Source: Candidatus Nealsonbacteria bacterium (GTDB taxonomy: Bacteria; Patescibacteriota; Minisyncoccia; Minisyncoccales; MHMH01). Taken from it: 62,277 nt of DNA. The first letter of the stretch is position 1; each line of letters starts with the position of its first letter. Under the pieces are notes generated by a model, which ran no database searches, was not told where the DNA came from, and saw nothing but the letters and a program-made list of their open reading frames with translations. The stretch is from NCBI GenBank assembly GCA_043813805.1, contig JBDRKR010000025.1:1-62277 (forward strand), read 5' to 3'. A program made the position numbers and the translations under genes. Shown here piece by piece: positions 31,418 to 48,730 of the stretch.

Positions 31418-31424
31418 ATTAAAG

Positions 31425-31778: not shown

Positions 31779-31789
31779 ATTAGTTTAAA

Positions 31790-32335: not shown

Positions 32336-32344
32336 ATAAGTATT

Positions 32345-32734
32345 TTACCAAATTTCGCAAATCATCTCCCCTCCCAAGTTCTGCTTTTTGGCTTCAGAAC
32401 CCGTCATTAATCCCTTTGAGGTGGAAATGATGGAAAATCCGTAACCGCCCCTAACCGACTTGATTTTTTGTGCGGCGAGATAAATCCGCTGCCCCGGCCT
32501 AGAAACTCTTTTTATCCCCGAAATAGCCGGAACTTTATTATCATATTTCAAAACGATCTCAAGGGTCTTGTTGGATGCGCCCTTGCCCGTTCTCGCCACC
32601 TTCCCGACAAAACCTCTTCTTTCCAAAAGTTTAGCAATTTCATATTTCAAATTAGAAAAATCCACTTCAATTTGAGGAAGTAAAACGACCTGGGCATTCT
32701 TTATTGAATTGAACATATTATTGATTTGATCCAT
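32345..32734 (-). CDS. rpsH: 30S ribosomal protein S8
   Basis: 129 aa. Called from operon order. Confidence 0.9.
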   Translation of the reverse strand: MDQINNMFNSIKNAQVVLLPQIEVDFSNLKYEIAKLLERRGFVGKVARTGKGASNKTLEIVLKYDNKVPAISGIKRVSRPGQRIYLAAQKIKSVRGGYGFSIISTSKGLMTGSEAKKQNLGGEMICEIW

Positions 32735-32789
32735 GTAATTGCAATTTATTCTTCGACTGGCTCAGAGTAATCCTGAGCTTACCGAAGGA

Positions 32790-32975
32790 TTACCAACTTG
32801 ATTTTTTAACACCGGGAATTAAAGCTTCATTAGCCATTTCTCTGAAACAGATGCGGCACAATCCGAATTCTCCCATATAGCCCCGAGGCCTGCCGCAACG
32901 AAAACAGCGTCTCACGATCCTTGTTGAAAATTTCGGTTTTCTTTTAGCTTTAGCGATTAAAGATTTCTTTGCCAT
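32790..32975 (-). CDS. rpsN: 30S ribosomal protein S14 type Z
   Basis: 61 aa with CFRCG...CRIC zinc motif. Confidence 0.9.
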
Positions 32976-32979
32976 GTTA

Positions 32980-33561
32980 TTAAGACTTATTTTTGATAGG
33001 AAAACCCATTAATTTAAGTAATTCCAATCCTTCTTTTTGGTTCTTGGCTGTGGTGACGACCGTAATTTCGAAGCTGAAAATAGCTTTCGTTTTTTCCGGC
33101 GAAATTTCCGGAAAAGCGATGTGCTCTTTAAGAGCCACTGTTAAATTGCCGCTTTGATCGATTGACTTTGGATCAATGCCTTGAAAATCGCGCGATCTGG
33201 GCAAGGCGACATTAATCAGTCTCTCTAAAAAGTCGTACATTCTCTGCCCCCTTAAAGTGCAGCAAGCGCCGATCAGCATGCCTTGCCTGGTTTTGAAGGC
33301 GGCAATCGCTTTTTTAGCTTTGGTCGGCATAACCTTCTGCCCGGCGATCAAAGTCAAATCCCCGACAATCGCGTCAATAATTTTCTTTGGTTCATCGCCG
33401 GTTTTGCCAACGATCAATCTGCCAAACCCGGTATTTAACACCACTTTTTCAATCTTGGGCACAGCCATACTGGATTTATAACCTAATTTCTCCCGCATAA
33501 CGGGAATAACTTCTTTGATAAATTTTTCCTTTAATCTCATCATGTTAGTTTGAAAAACCAA
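32980..33561 (-). CDS. rplE: 50S ribosomal protein L5
   Basis: The true start is probably Met7 or Met8 (MRLKEKF). Confidence 0.9.
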
Positions 33562-33586
33562 GGTTCTCGTGAAAACGAGGTTCTTA
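33558..33586 (-). repeat. direct repeat AAGAACCTCG-N8-AGAACCTTGG
   Basis: Related to 18356-18383 but on the opposite strand. Lies in the rplX-rplE spacer. Confidence 0.6.
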
Positions 33587-33889
33587 AATTTCTGATTGGC
33601 ATTTTTTACAAATGCGATATTTCTTTTTATCTAAAATCTTATAACCGACCCTGGTGGGTTTCGAGCATTTCGGACAAATTAAAACGGCGTTAGCGACCGA
33701 AAAAGCGGCCGGCACATGCACCAATTGTCCCTTTTCGCCGGATTTTTTGGGCTTCATGTTCTTTTTCCTCACACTGACGCCCTCAACGACAATCTTGCTT
33801 TCTTGAGAAAAAACATCTAAAACCTTGCCCTTTTTGCCGCGATCCTTGCCCGATATTATTAAAACCTGGTCGTTTTTGTGTATTTTCAT
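33584..33889 (-). CDS. rplX: 50S ribosomal protein L24
   Basis: Start placed at MKIHKNDQVLIISGKDRGK. Has a C-terminal Cys pair extension. Confidence 0.9.
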   Translation of the reverse strand: MKIHKNDQVLIISGKDRGKKGKVLDVFSQESKIVVEGVSVRKKNMKPKKSGEKGQLVHVPAAFSVANAVLICPKCSKPTRVGYKILDKKKYRICKKCQSEI

Positions 33890-33893
33890 ATAA

Positions 33894-34265
33894 TTACACC
33901 AATTCTTCGGCCATGCCGGCGATTTTATCAAAACCCCTTTCCTTTAATTCCTTGGCAATCGGCCCGAAAAGCCTGCCTCCCTTGGGCTCTTTCGTTTTCG
34001 CATCCAGAATAACACAGGCGTTATCGTCAAAACGGATATAAACGCCGCTGGACCTGCGGAAAGCCTTCCTCTGTCTGACCACGACCGCTCTTACCACTTC
34101 GTGCTTTTTAACGATCTTGCGCGGTTCGGCTTTTTTGACGACGCCTACAAAAATATCGCCCAGCTGCGCGTAGCGATGCTTGCTTCCTCCTAAGACTATA
34201 AAAGCCTGGACGATTTTCGCCCCGGAATTATCCGCCACTTTTAACATGGTTCTTAATTGAATCAT
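33894..34265 (-). CDS. rplN: 50S ribosomal protein L14
   Basis: MIQLRTMLKVADNSGAK start. Confidence 0.95.
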   Translation of the reverse strand: MIQLRTMLKVADNSGAKIVQAFIVLGGSKHRYAQLGDIFVGVVKKAEPRKIVKKHEVVRAVVVRQRKAFRRSSGVYIRFDDNACVILDAKTKEPKGGRLFGPIAKELKERGFDKIAGMAEELV

Positions 34266-34274
34266 AAACTAAAA

Positions 34275-34508
34275 CTAAACCTTTTTTAAAACTATCCATC
34301 TTTTATCCTTGCTCATGGGACGGCACTCTTCAATCATTACCCGATCGCCAATCGAATAATCCCCGCTTTCTGTGTGAGCTTTGTATTTCTTGTGCATCTT
34401 GTAAGTCCTCAGATATTTCGGGTGGTGCTTGATGCTTTCCACTTGGACGACCACGGTCTTTTGCATTTTATTGGAAGTGATAAAGCCGGTAAGTTGTTTC
34501 TTTGGCAT
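34275..34508 (-). CDS. rpsQ: 30S ribosomal protein S17
   Basis: 77 aa. Called from operon order. Confidence 0.9.
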   Translation of the reverse strand: MPKKQLTGFITSNKMQKTVVVQVESIKHHPKYLRTYKMHKKYKAHTESGDYSIGDRVMIEECRPMSKDKRWIVLKKV

Positions 34509-34516
34509 AATTTTAA

Positions 34517-34696
34517 TTAATGCAATAGGGTTAGAACCCTGGCAATTTCTTTTTTTAATTCCCTGATCTCTCTGACATTTTTTACCTTACCCGAAGCCAA
34601 ATCAAACCTCAATCTCCTTAAATGCTCCCTTCTTTCCAATAACATACTTTCTAACTCTTTTTTCGTTTTTTGTCTAATCTCACTGAACTTGTTCAT
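34517..34696 (-). CDS. rpmC: 50S ribosomal protein L29
   Basis: Hand translation gives MNKFSEIRQKTKKELESMLLERREHLRRLRFDLASGKVKNVREIRELKKEIARVLTLLH (59 aa). Not in the ORF track. Confidence 0.85.
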   Translation of the reverse strand: MNKFSEIRQKTKKELESMLLERREHLRRLRFDLASGKVKNVREIRELKKEIARVLTLLH

Positions 34697-34754
34697 ATTA
34701 TCTGATTTTCATATTAATTTAATTTATTAAATCAAGGTCCTGCGAAGCAGATTC

Positions 34755-35174
34755 TTATTTGGTATGTCTCACAATAAATTTGGTCTTCAACGACAATTTT
34801 TTACCCGCTTTTGTAAAAGCTTCTTTAGCTAATTCCTCTTTAATGCCCTCCAGCTCAAAAATAATCCGGCCGGGCTTTACCGAGAAAACATAATGATCGA
34901 CGCCTCCCTTTCCGCCGCCCATAGGAACTTCCGTTCCCTTCTTGGTAACGGGTTTGTCGGGAAAAATCCTCACCCAGAGCTTTCCTCCTTTCTTCAGATA
35001 TCTGATAATGGAACGCCGCGCGGCTTCAATCTGACGAGCCGTTATCCATTGGGACTCTTGAGCTTTCAAACCGAAACTGCCGAAATTCAACTCCGTGCCT
35101 CGGAAATCCATCCCCAGGTGCCTTCGACGGCCCTTGTGCCATTTTCGATGTTTTACTTTTTTCGGCATTAACAT
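34755..35174 (-). CDS. rplP: 50S ribosomal protein L16
   Basis: [16 protein letters not shown] start. Confidence 0.95.
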
Positions 35175-35185
35175 ATTAATTCAAG

Positions 35186-35213
35186 ATTTTATATTTATTC
35201 ATCAGCGAATCAA
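35186..35213 (-). promoter_or_regulatory. internal promoter TTGATT-16-TAAAAT, 11 nt from the rplP ATG
   Basis: Paralogous to the spacer upstream of rpsG (45132-45172). Confidence 0.5.
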
Positions 35214-35235
35214 CGTTCTCGCGATAGCGAATTTT

Positions 35236-35874
35236 TTAGTCAAACTTTTCTCCTTTATAAATCCAGACCTTGATACCGATAATGCCGTAAGTGCATAAAG
35301 CTTCGGTCAAGGCGTAGTCAATTATCGCTCTGAAAGTTTGCAGAGGCAGTCTCCCCTTTCTGAGCCATTCACGTCTTGCAATCTCATTGCCTCCCAACCT
35401 GCCCGACATTTCGATTTTCGCTCCCTTCACGTCTTTGCTGGCCATAATTTTTTCCATAGCCTGTTTCATAACCCGGCGGTGAGGCATTCTTTTTTCAATT
35501 TGCTGAGCAACCCACTGGCCGGACAAAGGAGCCGAAGCCCAAACGTTCTTGATTTCCCGGATTTCAATCCGTAATTCTTTTTTTTCTTTACCTAAAACTT
35601 TCTCGATTTCTTTTTTTAAATCTTCCGCGCCCTTGCCGCCCCGGCCGATTATCAATCCGGGTCTCGCACTGTTAACGATCACGTTGGTTTTGCCGGCGAA
35701 TCTCTCTATTTCAATTGATTCAATTGAACACTCTTTCAGCTTCTTTTTAAGAAACGTTCTAATCTTAAAATCTTCCTCCAAAAGCTGAGGAATGTTTTTT
35801 TTGCTTAACCAGCGCGACATCCAGTCTGCTGAATCTCTTACTCTAAACGCTTTTGGGTGAACTTTATGAGTCAT
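35236..35874 (-). CDS. rpsC: 30S ribosomal protein S3
   Basis: 212 aa with a KH domain. Confidence 0.95.
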   Translation of the reverse strand: MTHKVHPKAFRVRDSADWMSRWLSKKNIPQLLEEDFKIRTFLKKKLKECSIESIEIERFAGKTNVIVNSARPGLIIGRGGKGAEDLKKEIEKVLGKEKKELRIEIREIKNVWASAPLSGQWVAQQIEKRMPHRRVMKQAMEKIMASKDVKGAKIEMSGRLGGNEIARREWLRKGRLPLQTFRAIIDYALTEALCTYGIIGIKVWIYKGEKFD

Positions 35875-36212
35875 ATTTTTTTCTCGTTTGAAAGAACGAG
35901 GATAATTTGAGATGTTTTCTTTTGGATTTCAAACCCCTGGCCTTTTGCCCGGGGACGCATTCTTTTATATTTCGGACCGTCATTAACTTCAATTTTCTCC
36001 ACAAAAAGCTTGGCAGGATCTAATTTTAAGTTATTCTTCGCGTTGGCCACGGCCGAATTCAAAAGCTTCAAAATGGGCTTAGCAGCTTTTTTAGTGGTAA
36101 AACTTAAAATAGCGGCGGCTTGCGCTTGGGACTTGCCGCGAATCATGTCGGCTACCAATCTCACCTTTCTTGCTGATATTCTTAATTTGCTTAATTTAGC
36201 TTTGACAATCAT
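35871..36212 (-). CDS. rplV: 50S ribosomal protein L22
   Basis: 113 aa. Called from operon order. Confidence 0.9.
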   Translation of the reverse strand: MIVKAKLSKLRISARKVRLVADMIRGKSQAQAAAILSFTTKKAAKPILKLLNSAVANAKNNLKLDPAKLFVEKIEVNDGPKYKRMRPRAKGQGFEIQKKTSQIILVLSNEKKI

Positions 36213-36228
36213 AGTGAAAAATCAAGGT

Positions 36229-36570
36229 TTATTTCTTCTTTGGCACTGCTACCGGCGCCGGGGCTGATTTAACCGCTTCTTTTTCAGTAGCAGTCGCTTC
36301 CAAATCGCGCTGCATCCTGCCGCCGTGCCTGCCGAATTTAGTCGTCGGAGAGAATTCGCCAAGCTTATGGCCCACCATATCTTCTGTCACGAAAACCGGC
36401 ACGTGCTCTTTGCCGTTGTGCACCCCAAAGGTAAATCCCACCATTTCCGGGCTGATAGCACAGGACCTTGACCAAGTTTTGATGATGGACTTCGTCCCCT
36501 GTTTCAAATCTTTCAACTTCTTCAGCACCCGAATGTCAATATATGGACCTTTTTTAAGACTTCTTGCCAT
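36229..36570 (-). CDS. rpsS: 30S ribosomal protein S19
   Basis: [12 protein letters not shown] start. Confidence 0.95.
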
Positions 36571-37366
36571 GTTTTTGTCTTCTTTGAATTATATATTTAT
36601 TCGTCCAACTTCTTTTTCTGGTCTTGACGCCACGGGCGGGTTTTCCCCAAGGGGTCTTGGGGGTAGCCATACCGATCGGCGTTTTACCGTTACCGCCTCC
36701 GTGAGGATGGTCGCACGGATTCATCGCTGAACCCCTGACATGGGGTCTTTTGCCCCGATAACGCGAAGCTCCCGCTTTCCCTAATTTAATATAAATATGC
36801 TCGCCTCTTGAAAGGGCCCCCACCGAAGCGAAACAATCTCCTAGAATCTGCCTGATTTCACTGGACGGCATTTTCAAATGAGTATACTTCCCCTCTTGAG
36901 CTAAAACTTGAGCCGATGTTCCGGCCCCCCTGACCATCTTGCCGCCTCGGTTAGGAGTAACCTCAATATTATAAACCTGCGCGCCTACCGAAATATTTTT
37001 CAAACGCATGCGATTGCCGGGCAAAAGCTCTGTTTTTTCTTCGCAAATAACGCTGTCGCCCACTTTCAATCCCTGAGGAGCGAGCACATATCGCTTTTCT
37101 TTGTCGTTATGTTCCAAAAGAGCGATAAAAGAAGTGCGATAAGGATCGTATTCAAAAGCCAAGACTTTGGCCGGCATACCCAATTTATCCTGACTAAAAT
37201 CAATCATACGGTAAGTTTTTTTGACTCCGCCGCCTCGGTGGCGCGAAGTAATGCGACCAGAGTTTCCTCGGCCGCTGCTCCTAACCCAGTTCAAAAGCAA
37301 CCCCTTTTCCGGCGCCTTCTTCGACAATAAACTGAAGTCTTCTTTTGTGGTATTTTTCTTTAACAT
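36554..37366 (-). CDS. rplB: 50S ribosomal protein L2
   Basis: 270 aa with [11 protein letters not shown]. Confidence 0.95.
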
Positions 37367-37392
37367 GGATTCTTACCTCGGAATCTTACCCC

Positions 37393-37824
37393 TTACCGTG
37401 GTAAGATTTCTATCTGCTGACCTTGGGCCAACTTGACGATAGCTTTTTTATAAGCTTTGCGCCAGCCCTCAATCCTACCCAGCCTTCTTTTTTTGGGATG
37501 AATATTGATTATCTTTATAGACACCACTTTTACTCCATAAACATCTTCGACAGCTTTCTTGATTTCCGGCTTATTGGCTCTTTCATAAACATTAAAAATA
37601 TACTGGCCAATCTTGGCAAAGTCCGTGGCTTTTTCAGTCACGTGCGGCCACTTCAAAATACGACAGGCTGTTTCTGAATCTTTCTTTGGGGTTTGAGGAA
37701 CAGCTGCAACCTCTTTCTTGGCTTCTTTTTTCACCTCCTTTGAAGCGGCTTTCCTAACCACCTTTCTTGGAGCAACTTTCTTTTCTCCCTTTTTCTTATT
37801 TTTAAAAATATTAAATAAGGCCAT
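37393..37824 (-). CDS. rplW: 50S ribosomal protein L23 with a Lys-rich N-terminal extension
   Basis: L23 core preceded by about 50 aa of K/A/E-rich sequence. Confidence 0.85.
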   Translation of the reverse strand: MALFNIFKNKKKGEKKVAPRKVVRKAASKEVKKEAKKEVAAVPQTPKKDSETACRILKWPHVTEKATDFAKIGQYIFNVYERANKPEIKKAVEDVYGVKVVSIKIINIHPKKRRLGRIEGWRKAYKKAIVKLAQGQQIEILPR

Positions 37825-37831
37825 ATTATTC

Positions 37832-38464
37832 TTATTCTTTAACGACCATATCTTTTAAAACCTTAATCGACTCTTTCGGCATGATTAAATATTTAAAACT
37901 AAGCAAATCCAGGGCATTTAAGTCCTTGACCTGACTCGGCTTCGCATTTTCAAGATTTCTTGACGCTAAAATAAGATCTTTGTCCATGCCGGGCAAAACA
38001 ATCAAGACGCTTTCGTTCTTGCAGGGAAGTTTTTGAAGAAGCCCGGCGATAATTTTTGTTTTAATTTTTTCCAGCTTAAGCGTTTCCAAAACTACCAAAA
38101 AGTTACCTTTAGCCTTGGCCGACAAAACCATCAATAAGGCCGCCCGCTTCATTTTCCGATTGATCTTTTTCTTGAAATCTCTGTCTTTGGTCGGACCGAA
38201 GGCAATCCCGCCATGTCTCCAAATCGGGGACCTCGTAGATCCATGTCTGGCACGGCCTGTACCCTTCTGCCTCCAGGGTTTTTTACCGCCACCCGAAACC
38301 TGACCCCTGCCCTTGGTGTGGGCAGAAACCTGCCGGCGATTGGACGTCTGTGAGACAACGACCTGATGAATCAATTCTTGATTAACAGTCAAACCGAAAA
38401 TTTCCTTAGGCAGTAAGGTCTGGCTGACTTCTTTTCCTTCTTGATCGTAAACAGCTGCTTTCAT
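37832..38464 (-). CDS. rplD: 50S ribosomal protein L4
   Basis: 210 aa with GGGKKPWRQKGTGRAR. Confidence 0.95.
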   Translation of the reverse strand: MKAAVYDQEGKEVSQTLLPKEIFGLTVNQELIHQVVVSQTSNRRQVSAHTKGRGQVSGGGKKPWRQKGTGRARHGSTRSPIWRHGGIAFGPTKDRDFKKKINRKMKRAALLMVLSAKAKGNFLVVLETLKLEKIKTKIIAGLLQKLPCKNESVLIVLPGMDKDLILASRNLENAKPSQVKDLNALDLLSFKYLIMPKESIKVLKDMVVKE

Positions 38465-38473
38465 ATAAATAAA

Positions 38474-39085
38474 TTAAGCTCTGATTTCCACTAAGGTCCC
38501 GGGATGACCCGGCACAGCTCCCCGTATGGCCAATAAATTATTTTCCTTATCAACCTTTATTACCTGCAAATTTTTAACAGTAGTTCTTTCACCGCCCATG
38601 CGTCCCGGCATTTTTTTACCCTTCCAAACTCTTTGTAAACCGGTAGAGCCGATGGAACCAACAGTGCGCGCTTCGTGCTTAACACCGTGAGTGGCCTTCT
38701 TGCCGTGAAAACCCCAGCGCCTCACGGCGCCCTGAAATCCTTTGCCTTTTGAAACCCCGGCCACTTTAACAATATCCCCTTCTTGAAAAATACTCACATC
38801 AATCTTATCGCCCACGTTTCCGCTCAAAGCGGACGCTCTGTCGGCTGACGGATTTCGAAATTCGCGGATAAAACGGAAAGGCTTGTTCTGCATCGGTTTT
38901 TTAATTTTCTTTTTCTTTTCGATCTCTTTAAAGCCGATCTGCAAAGATTCGTAACCATCGGATTTTTTATTTTTCACTTGAGTAATTTGACAAGGTCCCG
39001 CTTCAATCAAAGTCAAAGGCACAACGTTGCCGTCTTTGTCAAAAATCTGCGACATGCCTAATTTTAAACCTAGTATAAACTTCAT
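38474..39085 (-). CDS. rplC: 50S ribosomal protein L3
   Basis: 203 aa with KGKGFQG. Confidence 0.95.
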   Translation of the reverse strand: MKFILGLKLGMSQIFDKDGNVVPLTLIEAGPCQITQVKNKKSDGYESLQIGFKEIEKKKKIKKPMQNKPFRFIREFRNPSADRASALSGNVGDKIDVSIFQEGDIVKVAGVSKGKGFQGAVRRWGFHGKKATHGVKHEARTVGSIGSTGLQRVWKGKKMPGRMGGERTTVKNLQVIKVDKENNLLAIRGAVPGHPGTLVEIRA

Positions 39086-39089
39086 TTTA

Positions 39090-39117
39090 TCAATAAAAGA
39101 CGGGGCACTAACCCCGT
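39090..39117 (-). terminator. terminator-like hairpin in the rplC leader
   Basis: ACGGGG-TTAGTG-CCCCGT followed by CTTTTATTG. Ends 5 nt before the rplC ATG. Confidence 0.45.
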
Positions 39118-39184
39118 GAATTACATTCGGTTAGTACTTATGCTATGCGGCAAGATGCTGCACAGACAGTATACTTATACAGCC

Positions 39185-39213
39185 ACTATATACCAAGCCC
39201 GTTTAACTGTCAA
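39185..39213 (-). promoter_or_regulatory. promoter TTGACA-17-TATAGT
   Basis: -35 at 39208-39213 and -10 at 39185-39190. Confidence 0.55.
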
Positions 39214-39226
39214 TATATCAAATAAA

Positions 39227-39270
39227 GGATTTACGAAATCCACTCTAATTTGAGAGGATTTCGTAAATCC
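39227..39270. repeat. REP2 palindromes, inverted pair
   Basis: ggatttacgaaatcc (39227-39241) and ggatttcgtaaatcc (39256-39270). Confidence 0.8.
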
Positions 39271-39286
39271 CAAATATCCGACGTAC

Positions 39287-39308
39287 AATCGATGTCGGAC
39301 ATCCATTA
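39287..39308. repeat. degenerate REP1 copy
   Basis: aatcgatgtcggacatccatta. 20 of 22 positions match 12606-12627. Confidence 0.7.
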
Positions 39309-39359
39309 TTTTAGTTATTTGTATAAATTACTGTGCGTATCAATATCAATAAATAATAC

Positions 39360-39545
39360 TTAGAGCTTGTTGAGGTACGCGTCCATTTCTTCAGGGGTGG
39401 AAAACGGACCACTGATATTTCTCTTGTTTTTAAAATCTTCTTCCACTTTTCCGATAAGCCTCTCCAACTCGGGAGTCATTTGAGGAGCATGGACATTTGT
39501 TCTCCCCTCTTTGTCGGTCTTAATATTGATAATAACTTTTGCCAT
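39360..39545 (-). CDS. hypothetical small protein (61 aa), possibly antitoxin-like
   Basis: Short ORF directly downstream of the dinD-like gene. No family recognised. Confidence 0.45.
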   Translation of the reverse strand: MAKVIINIKTDKEGRTNVHAPQMTPELERLIGKVEEDFKNKRNISGPFSTPEEMDAYLNKL

Positions 39546-39589
39546 ATATATTAAGTATATACGACGTATCTTTCTTATTGATAATTAAA

Positions 39590-40426
39590 TTATTCTGATT
39601 TTTTAAGTTTCTTTGTTTCTGTTTTCCCTAAATGCTTTAATCCGCCCTTCAACTCCCTGATATGTTTTTCGGTAGGCAAATTTTCTGGTAGCTCACCGCC
39701 AATATCTTTTATTGTTTGCCGAACCTTGCCACCAACCATAAAGTGCGTATTCGTAGCGGCGTTCTCGTCTCTAGTACCATCCTTTTTAAGCTTTTCATCG
39801 GTTTGAGTAATACGAAAAAGATTAGCGGCCAATTCGGTAGAACCAGCCCTGTCTAATAATTCTCTTTTCTTAATACCTTTTTTCTTTTCTACGTCAGCGA
39901 CAGGCATTCCATAGAGACCCTTATATCCAGCGTCATTAAATAATCCGAAATTGCTTACTCCCGCTTGCCGGGCGGTCTTAAAAAGTCTCTTATTGTGGTC
40001 TACGACTTCCTCACGGATAAATAATCGCTTTGCCGCATCCGGTAATTGCTCAAAAACCTCTTGCTTCCTTGTCTGTATGGCAAAATAAGTCTGAGCAAGA
40101 GCTATTTCGGACTTATTAGGGTCTCCATTTTGGGCTATTAAATAACAAGCATACCTATCCAATTTATAGTCCTTAACCTCTCTGACTGAGTTAGAACCAA
40201 TCTTGACCATTTTGCTGATTTTAGCAAAATGGTTATCCACATCTTGACCGCTCTTTAGACACGCCCGCGCAGCTTTACCGACAACTTCTTCAAAATTCCT
40301 CCACTGCGAATAACCCAATAAAAACATAAGCTCACGTGCCATCCAATACTCAACCCCATTTTTATCAATTTTTTTGATATCCTCAAATTTTCTATGAGGA
40401 GCAGATGGTATCATCTCGTCTGTCAT
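39590..40426 (-). CDS. dinD: DNA-damage-inducible protein D-like (Bro-N/DinD family)
   Basis: 278 aa. Long colinear similarity to E. coli DinD as I recall it: KIGSNSVREVKDYKLDRYACYLIAQNGDP, QTYFAIQTRKQE, GSTELAANLFR.TQT.EKLK. Confidence 0.75.
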   Translation of the reverse strand: MTDEMIPSAPHRKFEDIKKIDKNGVEYWMARELMFLLGYSQWRNFEEVVGKAARACLKSGQDVDNHFAKISKMVKIGSNSVREVKDYKLDRYACYLIAQNGDPNKSEIALAQTYFAIQTRKQEVFEQLPDAAKRLFIREEVVDHNKRLFKTARQAGVSNFGLFNDAGYKGLYGMPVADVEKKKGIKKRELLDRAGSTELAANLFRITQTDEKLKKDGTRDENAATNTHFMVGGKVRQTIKDIGGELPENLPTEKHIRELKGGLKHLGKTETKKLKKSE

Positions 40427-40432
40427 AAATCC

Positions 40433-40461
40433 ATCTTAGCTATTAAAAAGAGAAATGACAA
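40433..40461 (-). promoter_or_regulatory. promoter TTGTCA-17-TAAGAT, 6 nt from the ATG
   Basis: -10 at 40433-40438 and -35 at 40456-40461. Confidence 0.5.
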
Positions 40462-40540
40462 ATATCTTACACCTGTTCAACACCGAGTGTTTAACAATAA
40501 CCGAACGGATATTTGGGGTTTCCGAGATCCTATCAGATAT

Positions 40541-40561
40541 GTTGGATTTCGTAAATCCAAC
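40541..40561. repeat. REP2 palindrome
   Basis: gttggatttcgtaaatccaac. Confidence 0.8.
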
Positions 40562-40580
40562 AATCAGAAAACTCCGCTTT

Positions 40581-40605
40581 GGCAAAACCGCCCCGAGAGG
40601 GGCGG
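40581..40605 (-). terminator. rho-independent terminator directly after rpsJ
   Basis: CCGCCCC-TCTC-GGGGCGG followed by TTTTGCC. T-runs are present on both strands. Confidence 0.7.
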
Positions 40606-40615
40606 TTTTCCTAAT

Positions 40616-40954
40616 TTACATTTTAATTTCGATGTCAACACCAGCCGGCAAGGTTAAACTCATCAAAGCATCTATGACCCGGGAATTCGGACTCAAAACA
40701 TCAATCAATCTTTTATGAATCCTCATCTCGAATTGTTCTCTCGCATCTTTATGGACAAAGCTCGACCGGTTCACCGTATATTTTCTGGTCTCGGTCGGTA
40801 AAGGTACCGGCCCCGAAATTTCAGAACCATATCGCAAAGCCGTCTCACAAATCTCGCGAGCGCTCTTGTCAATCACTTTGTGATCGTAAGCCCGAAGCTT
40901 AATGCGGATCTTGGACTTAACCGGATTTTCAACTGCGACTATCTTTTTTGGCAT
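40616..40954 (-). CDS. rpsJ: 30S ribosomal protein S10
   Basis: 112 aa with [13 protein letters not shown]. Confidence 0.95.
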
Positions 40955-40979
40955 TGTCTTAAAAGGTGCAAATCAAAAT

Positions 40980-42179
40980 TTATTTAATGATCTTGGTCAC
41001 AACTCCGGCACCCACGGTCTTACCACCTTCCCTGATGGCGAATCTTTGCTGCTCTTCTAGGGCCACCGGAACGATTAATTTAACCTTTAAGTTAACCGTG
41101 TCTCCGGGCATAACCATCTCAGTTCCTTCTGGCAAGGTTACGTCTCCGGTCACATCGGTTGTTCTGATATAAAATTGGGGTTTATAACCCGGGAAGAACG
41201 GCGTATGTCTGCCACCCTCCTCCTTGGTCAAAACGTAAATCTCGCAATCAAATTCGGTATGAGGAGTAACGCTCCCTGATTTAGCCAGAACTTGTCCGCG
41301 CTGGACATCTTCTTTCTTTAAACCTCTGAGTAAAATACCAACGTTGTCTCCGGCCCGGCCTTCGTCCAAAATCTTGTTGAACATTTCTACGCTGACCGCC
41401 GTAGTTTTCATCGTCGGCTTGATACCGATCAATTCCACCTCTTCGTTGGATTTAATGATTCCCCTTTCAATTCTGCCGGTAGCAACAGTTCCTCTTCCTT
41501 CAATCGAGAAAACGTCTTCCACCGCCATCAAGAAAGGCTTATCAATGTCTCTTTTCGGTTCGGGAATAAATTCATCAACCGCTTTCATTAATTCCAGAAT
41601 AGGCTTAACCGCTTCGTCATCAATAGACTTGGCAGCCAAAGCTTTCATTGCCGAACCGCGGATAATGGGCGTTGTGTCTCCGGGAAATTTGTATTTATTC
41701 AAGAGCTCTCTGACTTCTGATTCAACTAAATCAATGATTTCCGGATCGTCAACAGCGTCGCATTTGTTCAAAAATACCACAATTGACGGAAGCCCTACCT
41801 GGTGAGCAAGCAAAATGTGCTCCCTCGTCTGAGGCATTGGGCCGTCTGGAGCCGAAACCACGAGAATTCCGCCGTCCATCTGCGCAGCACCGGTGATCAT
41901 ATTCTTAATGTAGTCCGCGTGTCCGGGACAATCAATGTGGGCATAGTGGCGTTTATCGGTTTCGTATTCAATATGAGTAACGGTAATAGTAAGACCTCTG
42001 GCTTTCTCTTCCGGAGAAGCGTTAATGTCATCAACCGACCACTCTTTAGACACATTACCCTTTAAATTTAAAACGTGGGTAATAGCCGCGGTCGTGGTAG
42101 TCTTACCGTGAGCGACGTGGCCAATTGTACCAATATTGACGTGGGGCTTGCCCCTTACAAATTTTTCTTTCTCAGCCAT
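40980..42179 (-). CDS. tuf: elongation factor Tu
   Basis: [17 protein letters not shown] and NKCD. Confidence 0.97.
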
Positions 42180-42243
42180 AAGTTTATTTTTATGCTTTTT
42201 TAATTAATTATTTTTATTAATGATATTACAAAACGCTAATACT

Positions 42244-42272
42244 ATCTTAGACAAGTAATGGGAAAATGTCAA
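42244..42272 (-). promoter_or_regulatory. promoter TTGACA-17-TAAGAT upstream of tuf
   Basis: -35 at 42267-42272 and -10 at 42244-42249. Confidence 0.6.
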
Positions 42273-42274
42273 TA

Positions 42275-42508
42275 CTAGAAAGGCAAGTCTTCGATCTTCA
42301 ACTCCTCGCTGCTCAACTCCACAGGCAATGCCCGTCTGTCGACAGACGGGGGTTTAGGATTATTTTCCTTGGGCCTTGACTCCGATTTTCCCCTCCCCTT
42401 CTTGTAATCGGCAAAAGAAACCACCACCATTACGGGCTCGCCATTTTCTACAATAATAATTCTTCCGCCATCTTCTTCAATTAATTTTTTAATTTCGTTT
42501 AAGTCCAC
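42275..42508 (-). CDS. Phd/YefM-like antitoxin-type small protein (solo)
   Basis: 77 aa with a GTG start. N-terminal GGRIIIVENGEPVMVVVSFADYKK resembles the Phd/YefM fold sequence. Confidence 0.5.
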   Translation of the reverse strand: MDLNEIKKLIEEDGGRIIIVENGEPVMVVVSFADYKKGRGKSESRPKENNPKPPSVDRRALPVELSSEELKIEDLPF

Positions 42509-42514
42509 GGATTT

Positions 42515-42558
42515 GTGGATTTACGAAATCCAACATATATGATGGGATTTCGTAAATC
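42515..42558. repeat. REP2 palindromes (two copies)
   Basis: gtggatttacgaaatccaac (42515-42534) and gggatttcgtaaatc (42544-42558). Confidence 0.8.
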
Positions 42559-42567
42559 AATTAAGGT

Positions 42568-44658
42568 TTATTTACGCTTGCCTTCGACTATTTCTTGAGC
42601 GATATTCTGAGGCACTTCTGCATAATGATCAAACTCCATAGTAAATGTTCCTCGACCCTGGCTCGTTGAACGGATGGCTGTCGCATAGCCGAACATTTCC
42701 GATAAGGGAACCTTGGAATTAATAATTTTAAGACCGCCCGCCCTGTCTTTAGTCTCTTCAATTTTACCTCTCCGCGAAGCCAAATCTCCGATAGCGTCGC
42801 CAAAATATTCTTCGGGCACCGTAACTTCCAGCTTCATAATAGGCTCAAGTAAAATAGGTTTCGCTTTTTTGCAAGCCGCCTGAAATGCCATGGCTCCGGC
42901 AAGCTTAAAAGCAATTTCTGAAGAATCAACCTCGTGATAAGAACCGTCGTATAATGTCGCCTCGATATCAACCAGAGGATACCCGGCAACAATTCCCTTA
43001 TCCATTGACTCTTTAACTCCTTTTTCCGTAGCCGGAATGTATTCTTGAGGAATAACGCCTCCTTTAATTTCATCAACAAATTCAAAACCCGTGCCTCTTT
43101 CTTTGGGTTTCACCCTCAAGTAAACATGGCCGTATTGTCCCTTACCGCCGGACTGTTTGATATATTTGCCCTCAGCTTCCGCCTCAGCTTTAATGGTTTC
43201 CTTATAAGCAACTTGAGGCTGGCCGACATTGGCATCAACCTTAAACTCTCTTTTCATTCTGTCGATAATAATTTCCAAATGCAGTTCTCCCATGCCCGAA
43301 ATAATCATTTCGCCCGTTTCCTGATCGCTCTTCATTTTAAAGGTGGGGTCTTCTTCCGCCAATTTCTTAATGGCCGTGCCCATCTTTTCCTGATCGGCTT
43401 TGGTTTTAGGTTCGATTCTGATACCGATGACCGGCTCGGGAAATACAATTTTTTCCAAAACAACGGGCTTCGCTTCGTCGCATAAGGTATTGCCCGTCGC
43501 AGTGTTTTTCAAACCGACGGTCGCTAAAATATCACCGGCAAACCCCTCATCCAAGTCCTGTCTTTCATCAGCGTGCATTCTTAAAATTCGGCCGATTCTT
43601 TCTCTCTCTCCTGTGATTGAATTTAAAACATAAGAACCCCTGACAAGGGTGCCTGAATAAATACGGAAAAAAGTTAAAGTGCCGACAAACGGGTCGGTCA
43701 TGATTTTAAAAGCTAAGGCCGCAAAGGGCTCCGTATCTTGAGGTTTCCTTTCAACTTCTTCGCCGGTTTTTAAGTCGTGGCATTTCACCGGAGGCACATC
43801 AAGAGGATTGGGCAAATATAAAATCGCTCCGTCCAGTAAGGGCTGTACTCCGATTCTCTTGAATAAAGAGCCCCAGAAAACCGGGAAAATTTTACATGCA
43901 ATGGTCGCTTTTCTCAAACCCTTTCTTAATTCATCAAGCGACAATTCTTCACCGGCTAAATATTTTTCGATCAACGCGTCGTCTTCAGCCGCAATTTTTT
44001 CCACAAGCTTTGACCGCCACTCTTTAGCTTGCTCCATCATTTCCTCGGGAACATCCGTTTCTTGGATGATCTCGCCTTCTACTCCTTCAAATTTCAGCGC
44101 CTTCATTCTTAAAAGATCAATAACACCCGAAAACCCGACTTCCGCTCCGATGGGAATCTGTAAGGGCATAGCCAAGGGCGTCAATCTTTTTCTGATGGAA
44201 TCGAGGTTTGATTCGAAGCTCGCCCCCATTTTGTCCATCTTGTTAACAAAACAAATTCTCGGAACATTGAAGCTGTCCGCTTGGCGCCAAACGGTTTCGG
44301 ATTGGGACTGAACTCCCGCTCCGCCGTCAAAAACTACGATAGCTCCGTCCAAAACCCTTAACGAGCGTTGAACCTCGGCCGTAAAATCAATGTGACCCGG
44401 AGTATCAATAATATTGATCTGGTAACCCTCGCCGTCCACTTTCCAGTACGTGGTAGTCGCAGCCGCCATAATCGTCATGGCTCTTTCCTGCGATTGCACC
44501 ATCCAATCCAAGGGAGTCGTACCTTTTTCCAAAGTGCCGATTTTATGGACTTTGCCCGTATGATATAAAATGCAGGTGCTTGTGGTCGTTTTACCCGCTG
44601 AGATATGGGCAATAATGCCGATGTTGCGATATTTTTCTAGAGGATATTGTCTTGGCAT
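42568..44658 (-). CDS. fusA: elongation factor G
   Basis: AHISAGKTT, DTPGHIDF and NKMD. 696 aa. Confidence 0.97.
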   Translation of the reverse strand: MPRQYPLEKYRNIGIIAHISAGKTTTSTCILYHTGKVHKIGTLEKGTTPLDWMVQSQERAMTIMAAATTTYWKVDGEGYQINIIDTPGHIDFTAEVQRSLRVLDGAIVVFDGGAGVQSQSETVWRQADSFNVPRICFVNKMDKMGASFESNLDSIRKRLTPLAMPLQIPIGAEVGFSGVIDLLRMKALKFEGVEGEIIQETDVPEEMMEQAKEWRSKLVEKIAAEDDALIEKYLAGEELSLDELRKGLRKATIACKIFPVFWGSLFKRIGVQPLLDGAILYLPNPLDVPPVKCHDLKTGEEVERKPQDTEPFAALAFKIMTDPFVGTLTFFRIYSGTLVRGSYVLNSITGERERIGRILRMHADERQDLDEGFAGDILATVGLKNTATGNTLCDEAKPVVLEKIVFPEPVIGIRIEPKTKADQEKMGTAIKKLAEEDPTFKMKSDQETGEMIISGMGELHLEIIIDRMKREFKVDANVGQPQVAYKETIKAEAEAEGKYIKQSGGKGQYGHVYLRVKPKERGTGFEFVDEIKGGVIPQEYIPATEKGVKESMDKGIVAGYPLVDIEATLYDGSYHEVDSSEIAFKLAGAMAFQAACKKAKPILLEPIMKLEVTVPEEYFGDAIGDLASRRGKIEETKDRAGGLKIINSKVPLSEMFGYATAIRSTSQGRGTFTMEFDHYAEVPQNIAQEIVEGKRK

Positions 44659-44663
44659 AAGGA

Positions 44664-45131
44664 TTACCAGGCGAAATGGGCAAAAGCTCGGTTAGCTTCG
44701 GCCATGCGGTGAGTATCATCTTTTTTCTTGATGGCCGAGCCCTCGTTTTTAGCGGCGAGCATCAGCTCTTCGGCTAATTTTTCATGCATCGGCTTGCCTT
44801 TTTTTGATCGGGCGGCGTTAATAATCCACCTGAAAGCCAAAGCAAGTTTTCTCTCTCCCCTGACTTCCCGAGGGACCTGATAAGTCGCCCCACCGACTCT
44901 TTTCGGTTTGATTTCCAATAAAGGAGAGGCGTTTTGAATAGCTAACTCAAAAACTTCTAAAGGTTCTTTCTTAGTTTTTTCTTTAATAATATTAAAAGCC
45001 CGGTAAACGATTTTTTTGGCAATAGTTTTTTTGCCGCGCCTCATGATGTGGTTGATAAGCTTAGACACCATGACGCTCTGGTAAATCGCGTCGGGATTAA
45101 GAATTCTTTTTGTTGTTTTACCTCTAGCCAT
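44664..45131 (-). CDS. rpsG: 30S ribosomal protein S7
   Basis: 155 aa. Called from str operon order. Confidence 0.95.
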
Positions 45132-45142
45132 ATTAATTCAAG

Positions 45143-45170
45143 ATTATATATTTATACTTTAGCGAATCAA
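45143..45170 (-). promoter_or_regulatory. internal promoter TTGATT-16-TATAAT, 11 nt from the rpsG ATG
   Basis: -10 at 45143-45148 and -35 at 45165-45170. Confidence 0.5.
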
Positions 45171-45173
45171 GGT

Positions 45174-45590
45174 TTATTTTTCTTTAGGTCTCTTAACTCC
45201 GTATCTTGATCTTTCTTGTTTGCGTCCCTCGACTCCCGCCGCATCCAGCATTCCCCTGACAATATGATAACGGACGCCGGGCAAATCCTTGACTCTGCCT
45301 CCCCTGATAACTACCATTGAGTGTTCCTGCAAATTATGGCCTTCACCGGGAATGTAAGCGGTCACCTCCATGCCGTTAGTAAGTCTCACCCTGGCTACTT
45401 TTCTTAAGGCCGAGTTAGGTTTTTTGGGAGTGGTTGTAAAAACTTTCAAACAAACGCCTCTTTTAAAAGGAGAATCGCAATCTTTGGGCGCATTTTTTAA
45501 AACGTTAAAACCAAAACTTAAGGCCGGAGTTTTGTCGGTCCTTATTTTTATCGGTCTTCTTTTTTTCATTAATTGACGAATCGTCGGCAT
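45174..45590 (-). CDS. rpsL: 30S ribosomal protein S12
   Basis: MPTIRQL start and [13 protein letters not shown]. Confidence 0.97.
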
Positions 45591-45607
45591 ATGCGAATAA
45601 TATGAGC

Positions 45608-45659
45608 ACCCCGCCCTCTAAGCTTAAGTAATTTGTACATTTAGCATAGAGGGCGGGGT
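45608..45659 (-). other. 13-bp GC-rich stem-loop in the rpsL leader
   Basis: ACCCCGCCCTCTA (45608-45620) pairs with TAGAGGGCGGGGT (45647-45659) around a 26-nt loop. Confidence 0.6.
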
Positions 45660-45743
45660 TCTCGTTGATACTCGAACTTTGTGCTTACGTTATGAGTTTA
45701 ACAAACTCCAAAACAAAAGTCAATATGAAATCATCAACCCCTC

Positions 45744-45769
45744 AAATGAAAGAGACTAAACCTCTTTCA
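45744..45769. repeat. palindromic terminator-like repeat, copy 4 (degenerate)
   Basis: aaatgaaagagactaaacctctttca. Confidence 0.7.
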
Positions 45770-45789
45770 CTTACACTGTTGAGTCTGTT

Positions 45790-46467
45790 TTATATTACGG
45801 TGAGGAGATAATACAAATAGGCAGCGGCTTGAAAAATGTAATTAATGCCGCCCAGAAACATAAGAGCCAAAAGAATAAAAAGGCCGTACTGATGCAAAAA
45901 CAGTTTAAGGCTGCCGAACTGCTCCGGCAAAAAAGTAAAAAGAATATGCGAGCCGTCAAACGGCGGAATCGGCAGTAAATTAAATAATGCCCAAGCGAAA
46001 TTATAAATCACAATAATGCTGAAAAGCGCCAGGGTTGTTTCGGGTAAGGTTACAAATCTTATTAAAAGGCCAAAAATCACAGCCAAGGAAAAATTAGCCA
46101 GAGGCCCGGCTAAAGAAACCTTGAGCATCCCCCATTTCTGGTCCCGCAGATTATAGGGATTTATAGGCACGGGCTTAGCCCAGCCGATAATAAACGGGCT
46201 TCTCATTAAAACCAATAAACAGGGTAAAATAATTGTTCCGAAAAGATCAATGTGTTTTAAGGGATTTAACGTCAGACGGCCGGCATATTTTGCCGTACTA
46301 TCCCCTAGCCTTAAAGCCATGCTGCCGTGGGCAACCTCGTGCAGAATAACTGAAAAAAGAAGAACGATCAAAGAAAAAATAGTAATTGACATCAAGATAA
46401 TTCTATCATGGCTTGAAAAAATAAGGAAACGTGCTAAGATATCGTTATATGTCAAGAATTTGTTCAA
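45790..46467 (-). CDS. site-2 protease family (M50) membrane metalloprotease
   Basis: HEVAHG motif and multiple TM helices. The start may be Met26 (46392). Confidence 0.75.
   Translation of the reverse strand: MNKFLTYNDILARFLIFSSHDRIILMSITIFSLIVLLFSVILHEVAHGSMALRLGDSTAKYAGRLTLNPLKHIDLFGTIILPCLLVLMRSPFIIGWAKPVPINPYNLRDQKWGMLKVSLAGPLANFSLAVIFGLLIRFVTLPETTLALFSIIVIYNFAWALFNLLPIPPFDGSHILFTFLPEQFGSLKLFLHQYGLFILLALMFLGGINYIFQAAAYLYYLLTVI
46413..46440 (+). promoter_or_regulatory. promoter TTGAAA-16-TAAGAT, 8 nt from the rpmB ATG
   Basis: -35 at 46413-46418 and -10 at 46435-46440. Confidence 0.45.
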
Positions 46468-46637
46468 TTTGCGGGAAAACCGGCATAATGGTTCAGAAGC
46501 TGGTAAAGCTTCGTGGAAAATTCAATCCGACCATTAAAAAAAGAAAACACCCAAATCTTCAATTGGTGACTTTGGTTTCGGGCAAAAAAGTTAAAGCCTG
46601 CGCTAAATGCATCAAGGCAATGGGAAAAAATAAATAA
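46449..46637 (+). CDS. rpmB: 50S ribosomal protein L28
   Basis: MSRICSICGKTG...KRKHPNLQ. Start placed at Met7 of the ORF. Confidence 0.8.
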   Translation: MSRICSICGKTGIMVQKLVKLRGKFNPTIKKRKHPNLQLVTLVSGKKVKACAKCIKAMGKNK

Positions 46638-46642
46638 TTTCC

Positions 46643-46714
46643 CGGAGTGTAGTATAACGGCCATTATGCAGGGCTGGGGGTCCTGTGACCTGGGTTCAAC
46701 TCCCAGCACTCCGA
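46643..46714 (+). tRNA. tRNA-Pro (GGG)
   Basis: 72-nt cloverleaf. Acceptor is CGGAGTG/CACTCCG, anticodon loop CTGGGGG, T-arm CTGGG-TTCAACT-CCCAG. Confidence 0.85.
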
Positions 46715-46727
46715 ATTTGAGCGTAAA

Positions 46728-46757
46728 ACAAAAAAACCGAATTACTCGGTTTTTTTG
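46728..46757. terminator. bidirectional terminator
   Basis: AAAAAACCGA-ATTAC-TCGGTTTTTT. Confidence 0.65.
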
Positions 46758-46772
46758 TTCGCCCTGCGCCGC

Positions 46773-47780
46773 TTAAAGATGCAAAACGTCAACCATCTGT
46801 TTGATCAAAGAAACCACCACGGGCGGCGGCATCAAACTGTAAGCCGCTCTCTTTTGATCATCCCAAACTATCCAGCGCTTTTCTTTGACCATAACTTTTT
46901 GGCCGTCCCATTCGTAATCGTATTCCGGCGTAATTTCGTAATCATCGAGGTAATCATCGGCAACGGACTTGGGCACAGAATTCCTTAAAAAAACCTTGGG
47001 AATCCCGTAAAGTGCGGCAGCCTGCTCGAGTAGCTGGCCGTCTTTTTGCAATCTTTCTTTAATGGGGGCAATCCCCTTCTCGTCACCCTCTTTTGGTACC
47101 ATACGGGGACCGGTACAGGCCGGATTGTCGCAATTCAAATAAAATTCTTTTTTCTTCGGATCATAGCCCACTTTGGAAGTCGGCAATAATTTAACACTGC
47201 GCGAGGTCTGACATTTGGGACAGACCCTCCGATATTTTATCCTCTCATCAATTACCGCCTCGGGCACGTCAATTAAAACGAAAACGTCGGGGTCATCTCT
47301 ATAGCCGACCAGATCACGGAAAAACAAGGTAAGATTCATCTGGTCCAAATCTCTCGGAAATCCATCGATGAAAATAGTTTTCTTGGGACGCTTCGCAATC
47401 TCTCTTTTGACCAAAAGTAAAATTAATTCGGTCGGCAAAAGATTCTTGGTGCTTCTTTTTTCCAGACCCGCCATAATTTCGCGGGAAGAGGTCCAGCCGC
47501 GATAATTCTTTTCTAAAAATTTAACCAGCTCTATTTTCTTTTTTCTATCCTTAAGCTCCTGGTCAATATTCCTGATCATGTCGCCGATGGAAAAATGCTC
47601 GATGGACTTTGGGTCAACGATTTCGGCAAACATTTTAGCGTACGTCCCCTTGCCCGAGTTCTTCTTGCCCAATAAGTATGCGATGAAAGTATTGCCTTTT
47701 TCAAAATAATTCCTGAGCTTTGCTATTTCCTTGCCCGCCTTCAATTCAAAATACTTTTTGCGCACTTCGGGATCATTCAT
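46773..47780 (-). CDS. adenylate-kinase-family protein with an N-terminal extension and Cys-rich lid
   Basis: P-loop GKKNSGKGTYA and lid CPKCQ...CDNPAC. Start placed at Met19 to avoid overlapping the upstream gene. Confidence 0.6.
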   Translation of the reverse strand: MNDPEVRKKYFELKAGKEIAKLRNYFEKGNTFIAYLLGKKNSGKGTYAKMFAEIVDPKSIEHFSIGDMIRNIDQELKDRKKKIELVKFLEKNYRGWTSSREIMAGLEKRSTKNLLPTELILLLVKREIAKRPKKTIFIDGFPRDLDQMNLTLFFRDLVGYRDDPDVFVLIDVPEAVIDERIKYRRVCPKCQTSRSVKLLPTSKVGYDPKKKEFYLNCDNPACTGPRMVPKEGDEKGIAPIKERLQKDGQLLEQAAALYGIPKVFLRNSVPKSVADDYLDDYEITPEYDYEWDGQKVMVKEKRWIVWDDQKRAAYSLMPPPVVVSLIKQMVDVLHL

Positions 47781-47794
47781 GTCGAATTTCTGAT

Positions 47795-48667: not shown

Positions 48668-48702
48668 AAACTTAGCTTACCATGATATAGCTCCATAAAA
48701 AC

Positions 48703-48730
48703 TTGACAAATCGTTATAATGTAATAAAAT
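48703..48730 (+). promoter_or_regulatory. promoter TTGACA-16-TAAAAT
   Basis: SD AGGAGGG follows at 48758-48764. Confidence 0.5.

Follow-up and report, generated by a model that had tools for sequence, protein, structure and literature searches.

The ribosomal protein genes rpsJ and rplC are separated by 1530 nucleotides (nt) in a 62,277-nt stretch of DNA (contig JBDRKR010000025.1 of assembly GCA_043813805.1; referred to here as the window) from a bacterium of the Patescibacteria, or Candidate Phyla Radiation (CPR), near Candidatus Nealsonbacteria. The spacer (positions 39086 to 40615) holds a gene of the dinD family, a short open reading frame (ORF) designated orf61, and copies of two palindromic repeats, REP1 and REP2, and all of the genes around it are on the minus strand. 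The window RplC was 87% identical to that of Candidatus Nealsonbacteria RIFCSPHIGHO2_02_FULL_43_13 (locus L001, MHMD01) and 82 to 86% identical to RplC from a handful of metagenome contigs. The elements of the spacer had been listed in a first-pass annotation made from the sequence alone; all of them were present where it had placed them or a few nt away, and the listed features exceeded chance expectation. That annotation took the spacer to be an accessory insertion splitting the S10 operon. Comparison with related genomes indicates instead that the rpsJ-rplC junction is probably an insulated, variable slot that contains a mobile dinD gene, a decayed toxin-antitoxin (TA) cassette, and palindromes of independent origin.

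The junction was surveyed in 68 loci in which both rpsJ and rplC were found. The gap between the two genes was mostly 6 to 360 nt, and about 10 of the 68 loci had inserts of at least 500 nt (gaps of 500 to 1630 nt). None of these assessable relatives had DinD in the junction, which agrees with the proposal that dinD is an insertion missing from relatives at the same site. However, a gene at this position is not the rarity within the most conserved operon of the genome that it had been taken for, because the junction is a recurrent cargo slot in the clade. Where the window has dinD and orf61, L001 has an ORF for a coiled-coil protein of 95 amino acids (aa), relB, relE, and ∼480 nt of additional DNA. 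The cargo includes relE in L102 and consists of a 91-aa Cys-rich ORF in L099, a 114-aa ORF in L104, a 105-aa ORF in L003 and L105, and other ORFs in L008, L013, L058, and L136. In the window, L001, L003, L099, and L104, the cargo ORFs that were read had the same orientation as the ribosomal genes. Thus, in close relatives, the rpsJ-rplC junction is apparently a hypervariable cargo slot and a hotspot for insertion.

Every genus-level relative had a common frame around the cargo, which consisted of rpsJ, a GC-rich hairpin, variable DNA, ATATTGACAG…TATA(G/C)T, a conserved leader of ∼95 nt, and rplC. Homology between the window and L001 extended to 40608 and resumed at 39216, exactly at the rplC promoter. 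This promoter was kept as TTGACA-17-TATA(G/C)T in L001, L099, L100, L102, L103, L104, and L008, and a hairpin equivalent to that after rpsJ, with a different stem sequence, was also found in L001, L003, L008, L099, and L104. Because the hairpin, promoter, and leader were retained in all of the genus-level relatives (L001, L099, L100, L102, L103, and L104) with different cargo, they are ancestral and were not imported by dinD, the hairpin being ancestral to the clade and the rplC promoter to the genus-level clade. The proposal that a terminator and a promoter came with the insertion is therefore not supported, and the related proposal of rewired ribosomal protein transcription fails because in this clade the operon had been split and insulated beforehand. 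The window does not have the classical S10 organization, in which rpsJ is followed directly by rplC within one unit; the spacer with its terminator hairpin, promoter, and leader lies between the two genes. Transcription is predicted to terminate after rpsJ and to initiate at the rplC promoter.

The E. coli S10 operon has a leader attenuator controlled by L4. The rplC leader of the window, which is flanked by GAGUAUACU…AAGUACUAACC, had counterparts in L001 (5904-6000), L099 (4904-5000), L104 (2285-2379), and L008 (2322-2424). Folding of the whole leader yielded two hairpins with 21 predicted pairs, 3 of which had compensatory changes, and the first hairpin covaried. In these loci the leader ends in the rplC-proximal hairpin and its U-tract, 14 to 20 nt before the ATG. 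All 21 of the 21 Parcubacteria relatives examined had such a hairpin and U-tract, including those with spacers of 90 to 200 nt, and all five consensus pairs of this hairpin covaried among 19 sequences. A search of Rfam with positions 30000 to 50000 detected no known leader or riboswitch, and the only matches were chance microRNA-like matches to the palindrome. The hairpin before rplC must be read through, because genomes with short spacers leave no room for a promoter downstream of it, and we infer from this that the rplC leader acts as an attenuator and has a function comparable to that of the L4-controlled leader in E. coli. Both are 5′ leaders with a terminator-like hairpin and U-tract before the first gene of a long ribosomal protein operon, with support from covariation in the present case. 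However, the leader in the window precedes rplC and not rpsJ, which is grouped with tuf, and it has no similarity to leaders in Rfam. It may be an autoregulatory attenuator that responds to a ribosomal protein, possibly L4 or L3.

Table 1. Features in and around the rpsJ-rplC spacer, in the order in which the genes are transcribed
Feature	Position	Strand	Remarks
fusA	42568-44658	-	
REP2, third composite copy, between fusA and orf77	42517-42559		Common to L001 and L242; missing in L099 and L003
orf77, 77-aa Phd/YefM-like ORF	42275-42508	-	
tuf	40980-42179	-	
rpsJ (ribosomal protein S10), upstream border of slot	40616-40954	-	Pfam Ribosomal_S10, 3e-35; 94-96% identical to L001, L099, L104
Terminator-like hairpin directly after rpsJ stop	40581-40611	-	AAAACCGCCCC-UCUC-GGGGCGGUUUU; -23.1 kcal/mol, z = -3.5
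REP2 composite copy, second half degenerate	40505-40559	.	Fold -19.4 kcal/mol; missing here in L001, L099, L104
dinD promoter, TTGTCA-17-TAAGAT	40433-40461	-	-10 ends 6 nt before ATG; no Shine-Dalgarno sequence seen by eye in those 6 nt
dinD	39590-40426	-	278 aa, intact; N-terminal Bro-N domain and helical C-terminal half; hidden Markov model (HMM) matches
orf61, RelB-type antitoxin remnant	39360-39545	-	61 aa; alignment to L001:4846-5133
Last 14 codons and stop of YafQ/RelE/ParE-type toxin gene	39315-39359	-	VLFIDIDTHSNLYK and stop; 14 aa 100% identical to C terminus of L001 toxin
REP1 repeat	39287-39310	.	Folds weakly alone (z = -1.4)
REP2 composite copy	39227-39280	.	Hairpin -28.3 kcal/mol, z = -6.9
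rplC-operon promoter, TTGACA-17-TATAGT	39185-39213	-	11/12 consensus matches
Structured rplC leader	39086-39178	-	First hairpin, then terminator-like hairpin (39100-39117) with U-tract 14 nt before ATG
rplC (ribosomal protein L3), downstream border of slot	38474-39085	-	Pfam Ribosomal_L3
rplD, rplW, rplB	Downstream of rplC	-	

The main cargo gene in the window encodes a true, intact, and strongly conserved member of the DinD family. In HMM searches the protein passed the cutoff of the NCBIfam DinD equivalog NF008573 (PRK11525; 343.8 bits versus a cutoff of 242), with residues 9 to 274 aligned to profile positions 8 to 284 of 288, which bears out the family assignment made from the sequence alone. 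It also matched Pfam Bro-N (PF02498; residues 17 to 114, 42.4 bits versus a cutoff of 25.6, 1e-10), the PADLOC model PDC-S13 (PDLC04919; residues 8 to 274, 2.4e-108), and phrog_8036 (4e-94), and it retained all of the invariant alignment columns. Of more than 8000 homologs retrieved, the best 120 were 72 to 88% identical to the window protein, and all of those with a source name were from Patescibacteria-group or unclassified bacterial metagenome-assembled genomes (MAGs). Identity to E. coli copies was still ∼51 to 53%, which indicates that the family evolves very slowly; such slow change would fit a target that is conserved universally, for example RecA-DNA filaments. No relative was found in the PDB by sequence. 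An AlphaFold2 (AF2) model contained an N-terminal alpha/beta domain (residues 12 to 100) with predicted local distance difference test (pLDDT) scores of 70 to 84, and the mean pLDDT of the whole protein was 58.

DinD of E. coli is a member of the SOS regulon (PMC6590174). Inhibition of post-synaptic RecA filaments was described for it by Uranga et al. (2011), as cited in PMC4457935, and is known only for the E. coli protein. The window protein resembles E. coli DinD (PcsA) in its full-length match at the equivalog level, its N-terminal Bro-N domain, and its similar length, and by analogy it would be a Bro-N DNA-binding protein that acts on RecA/DNA transactions. It differs in that its gene lacks a LexA-box-like operator, has a promoter abutting the ATG, and sits in a CPR ribosomal protein cluster. 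The other system to which it can be compared is PDC-S13. In addition to the strong HMM match, CPR homologs are found beside Mrr, type III-like restriction-modification (RM) genes, DNA methyltransferases, and TA pairs, whereas dinD of the window is solitary and has no RM neighbor. No paper reporting experimental validation of PDC-S13 was found in a literature search. DinD-like N-terminal modules are also present in Type I HsdS (PDLC03083) and PDC-S05.

The first-pass annotation had assigned dinD its own promoter next to the ATG, and this geometry was conserved. Of 51 unique regions upstream of DinD genes, 26 had a TAnnnT -10 element that ended 6 to 7 nt from the ATG, compared with 0 to 9 at each other distance, and a shared TTTGCCAtttttctttttaa…TAAAAT motif was seen in upstream sequences of DinD genes from unrelated contexts. 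With a promoter that abuts the ATG, the mRNA from which DinD is translated very probably lacks a leader. Nucleotide homology of the upstream region to a dinD copy at locus L230 began at 40469, and the promoter apparently travels with the gene.

The surroundings of other dinD genes suggest that the gene is mobile. The nearest dinD homologs (82 to 83% nucleotide identity) shared only 40448-39577 with the window and adjoined an Mrr endonuclease, a type III-like methyltransferase and helicase, an N6/N4 methyltransferase, a ribbon-helix-helix (RHH)/YafQ pair, and ClpP or Fpg. Seven distinct contexts were sampled in relatives, and in four of them dinD was next to Mrr, RM, or TA genes; dinD in the window is next to a dead TA module only. 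Full-length DinD homologs adjoined an integrase in Streptococcus phage satellites and were also found in Campylobacter phages and on plasmids. Neither rpsJ, rplC, tuf, nor the palindrome was found near DinD in any of 78 other DinD loci. The company of the gene in other genomes makes it probable that DinD is cargo of mobile elements or defense islands.

The MAG from which L001 was obtained has a dinD copy of its own, beside recG (L230, MHMD01000018), that is interrupted by another ORF. In this copy (1385-2603), a 180-aa ORF stands in place of DinD residues ∼68 to 144. This ORF has a Bro-N-like N terminus (33% identity to DinD residues 23 to 121) and an uncharacterized C-terminal half; the region contains assembly Ns. 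Two short motifs were observed downstream of dinD genes. GGTTCTAACATYRTYCAC was located 40 to 100 nt past the dinD gene in three loci of unrelated context (L087, ∼4020-4050; L093, ∼6930-6960; and L096, ∼6880-6900). TCGGYATRYAAATATMT, which resembles the relB promoter region of L001, followed the dinD stop in the window, L088, L089, and L093.

The second ORF in the slot, orf61, had been suggested as a possible partner of DinD. However, it is a deletion derivative of an antitoxin that is paired with an intact YafQ/RelE toxin at the same site in L001. The 95-aa L001 antitoxin matched Pfam RelB/RHH_1 above the cutoff, and orf61 was 69% identical to it over the aligned columns, with 31 internal codons for the RHH core deleted in frame; orf61 itself had no Pfam match. 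The L001 toxin matched Pfam YafQ_toxin above the cutoff (1.9e-7), ∼217 nt of the toxin gene are deleted in the window, and there is no other copy of the toxin in the window. The -35 of the TA promoter (TTGACA in L001) has been replaced, so that the -10 part alone remains (∼39550-39569). Homology of the remnant to L001 started at 39569, 8 nt from the end of dinD-unit homology at 39577. Like a type II TA system of the RelB(RHH)/RelE-YafQ-ParE kind, the remnant has an antitoxin homolog followed by a toxin 3′ end, and L001 has the same antitoxin-toxin order with overlapping genes. It differs from such a system in that the module has decayed and deletions have removed its RHH core, its -35, and the greater part of its toxin. 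Neither an intact RHH domain nor an adjacent intact toxin was found, and the remnant is homologous to a genuine module that occupies this locus in L001. The RHH deletion and the toxin end that follows orf61 argue for a decaying RelB-type antitoxin, not a partner of DinD, and the window apparently has no working TA system here.

The repeats reported in the first-pass annotation are real. REP2 (GGATTTCGTAAATCC) occurred 5 times in the window, compared with 0.34 expected, and REP1 (AATAATGGAYGTCCGACRTCGATT) gave five matches at four window sites (12606, 13145, 13329/13332, and 39287), compared with 0 expected. The REP2 copies make up three composite palindromes, all in the str/S10 region of the window. 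The element is a 44- to 54-nt near-perfect palindrome composed of two inverted 15-mers and a palindromic spacer, and its hairpins had z scores of -5.6 to -6.9. Exact composite copies were found in four other Nealsonbacteria-type MAGs, in which copy number was sampled; they were mostly intergenic, and some were within ORFs. REP2 was missing from the slot of L001 and from the homologous sites in L099 and L003, which suggests a REPIN/MITE-like element that colonized the slot independently. Like REP/REPIN (BIME) and MITE-type repeats, REP2 is short, palindromic, multicopy, mainly intergenic, and lineage specific and forms stable hairpins. No RAYT/IS200-type transposase was seen with REP2, although no search aimed at RAYT was made. 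No further copies of REP1 were found in any fetched locus. Its other copies in the window (12606-12629, 13145-13168, and 13329-13355) cluster around an ORF at 12629-13309, and one is inside the ORF. The possibility that REP1 is a degenerate rpsJ 3′ end, as is found in L001, was rejected because REP1 forms a family of its own and a copy of the rpsJ end could not be detected in the window.

The third REP2 composite lies upstream of orf77 and is apparently an insertion, because it is missing in L099 and L003. One REP2 copy abuts the orf77 start codon, but a role as an orf77 operator was rejected because the orf77 genes of L099 and L003 lack the palindrome and begin with ATG. In the window and L001, in which the palindrome is present, orf77 starts with GTG and not ATG, as if the insertion had overwritten the start context. 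ORFs of this type (70 to 88 aa) are found between fusA and tuf in several relatives (L001, 2534-2746; L003, 3476-3676, listed as 3410-3676; and L099, from 2659), and a C-terminal EELKIEDLPF motif is common to those of L001, L003, and the window. The N terminus of orf77 is like that of a Phd/YefM antitoxin (Pfam, 26.2 bits, just under the cutoff of 29.8), and no toxin gene is adjacent. It is possible that orf77 encodes a domesticated small regulator within the str operon.

Other features of the cluster were also observed. A near-consensus promoter-like site, TTGACA-17-TAAGAT, can be read between orf77 and tuf (42244-42272, minus strand), which suggests that tuf-rpsJ has its own promoter. In ∼45 loci (L024 to L077), mostly labeled Saccharibacteria/Nanosyncoccus, there was no rpsJ homolog in the flank fetched upstream of rplC (at most 6 kb, and in some cases shorter), and in this lineage rpsJ seems to lie wholly outside the S10 cluster.

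The features of the slot would be explained if tuf-rpsJ and the genes from rplC onward are separate insulated units, one ended by the rpsJ terminator and the other started by the rplC promoter and attenuator leader. With insulating signals on both sides, the DNA between the terminator and the promoter could accept genes while ribosomal protein expression remained undisturbed. In the order of events that we infer, an older relBE/yafQ-type TA cassette, common to L001 and L102, would have decayed in the window. A single-gene dinD unit of ∼0.9 kb (40469-39577) with its own promoter would have arrived where L001 has an unrelated 95-aa gene, and two lineage-specific families of small palindromic repeats would have colonized the slot.

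Several observations weigh against parts of this explanation. The tail of the hairpin after rpsJ consists of four U residues, and a terminator scanner made no call there. No integrase or transposase was seen near the slot, although the window ORFs were not screened for Y1 transposases. Because DinD evolves slowly everywhere, high identity between CPR lineages alone is no proof of recent transfer, and an argument for recent horizontal gene transfer from such identity was toned down for that reason. A defense role for DinD is drawn from gene neighborhoods and from PDC-S13, which is a predicted candidate model. The C-terminal half of DinD was poorly modeled by AF2 (pLDDT, ∼50), and a Foldseek comparison of the AF2 model with the PDB gave no meaningful match (best E value, 0.74). 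A pattern search of the 194 nt upstream of dinD revealed no CTGT-N8-ACAG or GAAC-N4-GTTC box with at most 1 mismatch, and there were only weak matches to other LexA-type patterns; the description "damage inducible" may be inapplicable to dinD of the window. Finally, the reading frame of orf61 remains open, and a residual function is possible.

The bracketing of the cargo by palindromes raises the possibility that the segment from 40559 to 39227, with dinD, the TA remnant, and REP1, is one composite mobile unit with the palindromes as terminal inverted repeats. The two palindromes form a 33-nt, 85% complementary inverted repeat around the cargo, they are missing at the same positions in L001, L099, and L104, and the element is multicopy in related MAGs. 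However, the TA remnant is syntenic with the intact TA modules of L001 and L102 in the same slot and so did not arrive with dinD. Furthermore, there is no repeat at the junction between dinD and the TA remnant, and the palindrome, which accompanied none of the 78 other dinD genes, occurs alone at unrelated sites, including after fusA. A composite unit thus seems improbable. It is still less probable that dinD works together with orf61 as a two-gene system, for example a toxin and antitoxin or an effector and regulator, as the first-pass annotation had suggested. The two genes are adjacent, co-oriented, and 44 nt apart, and there is a loose association of DinD with the RHH/YafQ TA family: in the unrelated locus L089, an RHH antitoxin and a YafQ-like toxin detectably similar to the L001 toxin are directly upstream of DinD. 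However, the TA module of L089 is intact and precedes DinD, an architecture unlike that of the window. At this site in L001, the partner of the full-length orf61 homolog is a RelE/YafQ toxin rather than DinD, and in the window the last 14 codons of the toxin still follow an orf61 that has no RHH core or Pfam match. A tblastn search with orf61 and the L001 RelB among the probes gave no antitoxin-like match in the 66 DinD loci covered.

The least probable of the alternatives is that the arrangement is a metagenome assembly chimera, joined at the ∼50-nt palindromes. These repeats are near the k-mer size of assemblers and flank the cargo, and the exact DinD protein of the window is on record on no other contig. 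However, synteny with relatives holds on both sides of each palindrome, in tuf-rpsJ-terminator for one side and in TA remnant-promoter-rplC for the other, and a chimera that restored str/S10 synteny would be improbable. The junction of dinD with the TA remnant is also free of repeats, and at worst a chimera would represent mixed strains of one population. The insulated slot with a mobile dinD, a decayed TA cassette, and independently acquired palindromes is the preferred explanation, and the reading of the spacer as an accessory gene splitting the S10 operon fails: the slot is a recurrent landing pad, DinD belongs to a known family, and orf61 is a dead antitoxin. What remains of mild interest is the hotspot itself, the duplications of the rpsJ end in relatives, the conserved rplC leader, and the self-promoted, apparently leaderless dinD across the CPR.

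In L001 and L102, the last 12 to 24 nt of rpsJ and parts of the terminator are repeated after the cassettes (L001 5382-5405; 21 of 24 nt identical). No such copy was detectable in the slot of the window. The repeats in L001 and L102 point to insertion at the rpsJ stop or terminator, with duplication. Because the rpsJ end and terminator recur after successive cassettes in these two loci, it is conceivable, though doubtful, that in Nealsonbacteria-type CPR they serve as an att-like capture site for small promoter-bearing cassettes. The repeats are similar to those of tRNA-targeting islands and integron-like arrays, but no integrase is nearby. If there were such a capture site, dinD would belong to a set of single-gene defense cassettes, leaderless and self-promoted, that circulate among CPR bacteria, and the ribosomal protein cluster would double as a mini islet of defense and accessory genes, guarded from loss by strong constitutive transcription of its neighbors and by its essential context.

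No current concept is overturned by these findings. They indicate that the str/S10 cluster, a textbook example of conservation, is not inviolate in the CPR and that in the Nealsonbacteria-like clade the junction between rpsJ and rplC is apparently pre-insulated, with quick turnover of accessory genes. Blocks of ribosomal protein genes serve CPR phylogenomics, binning, and the calling of genomic islands, and inserts in the slot can mislead such tools. DinD emerges as an unusually well conserved and widely scattered single-gene cargo in genome-reduced bacteria. Because such bacteria keep very few accessory genes, its retention argues that DinD does something valuable, either directed at RecA and DNA or against phage, and the DinD orthologs of the CPR are reasonable candidates for functional tests.

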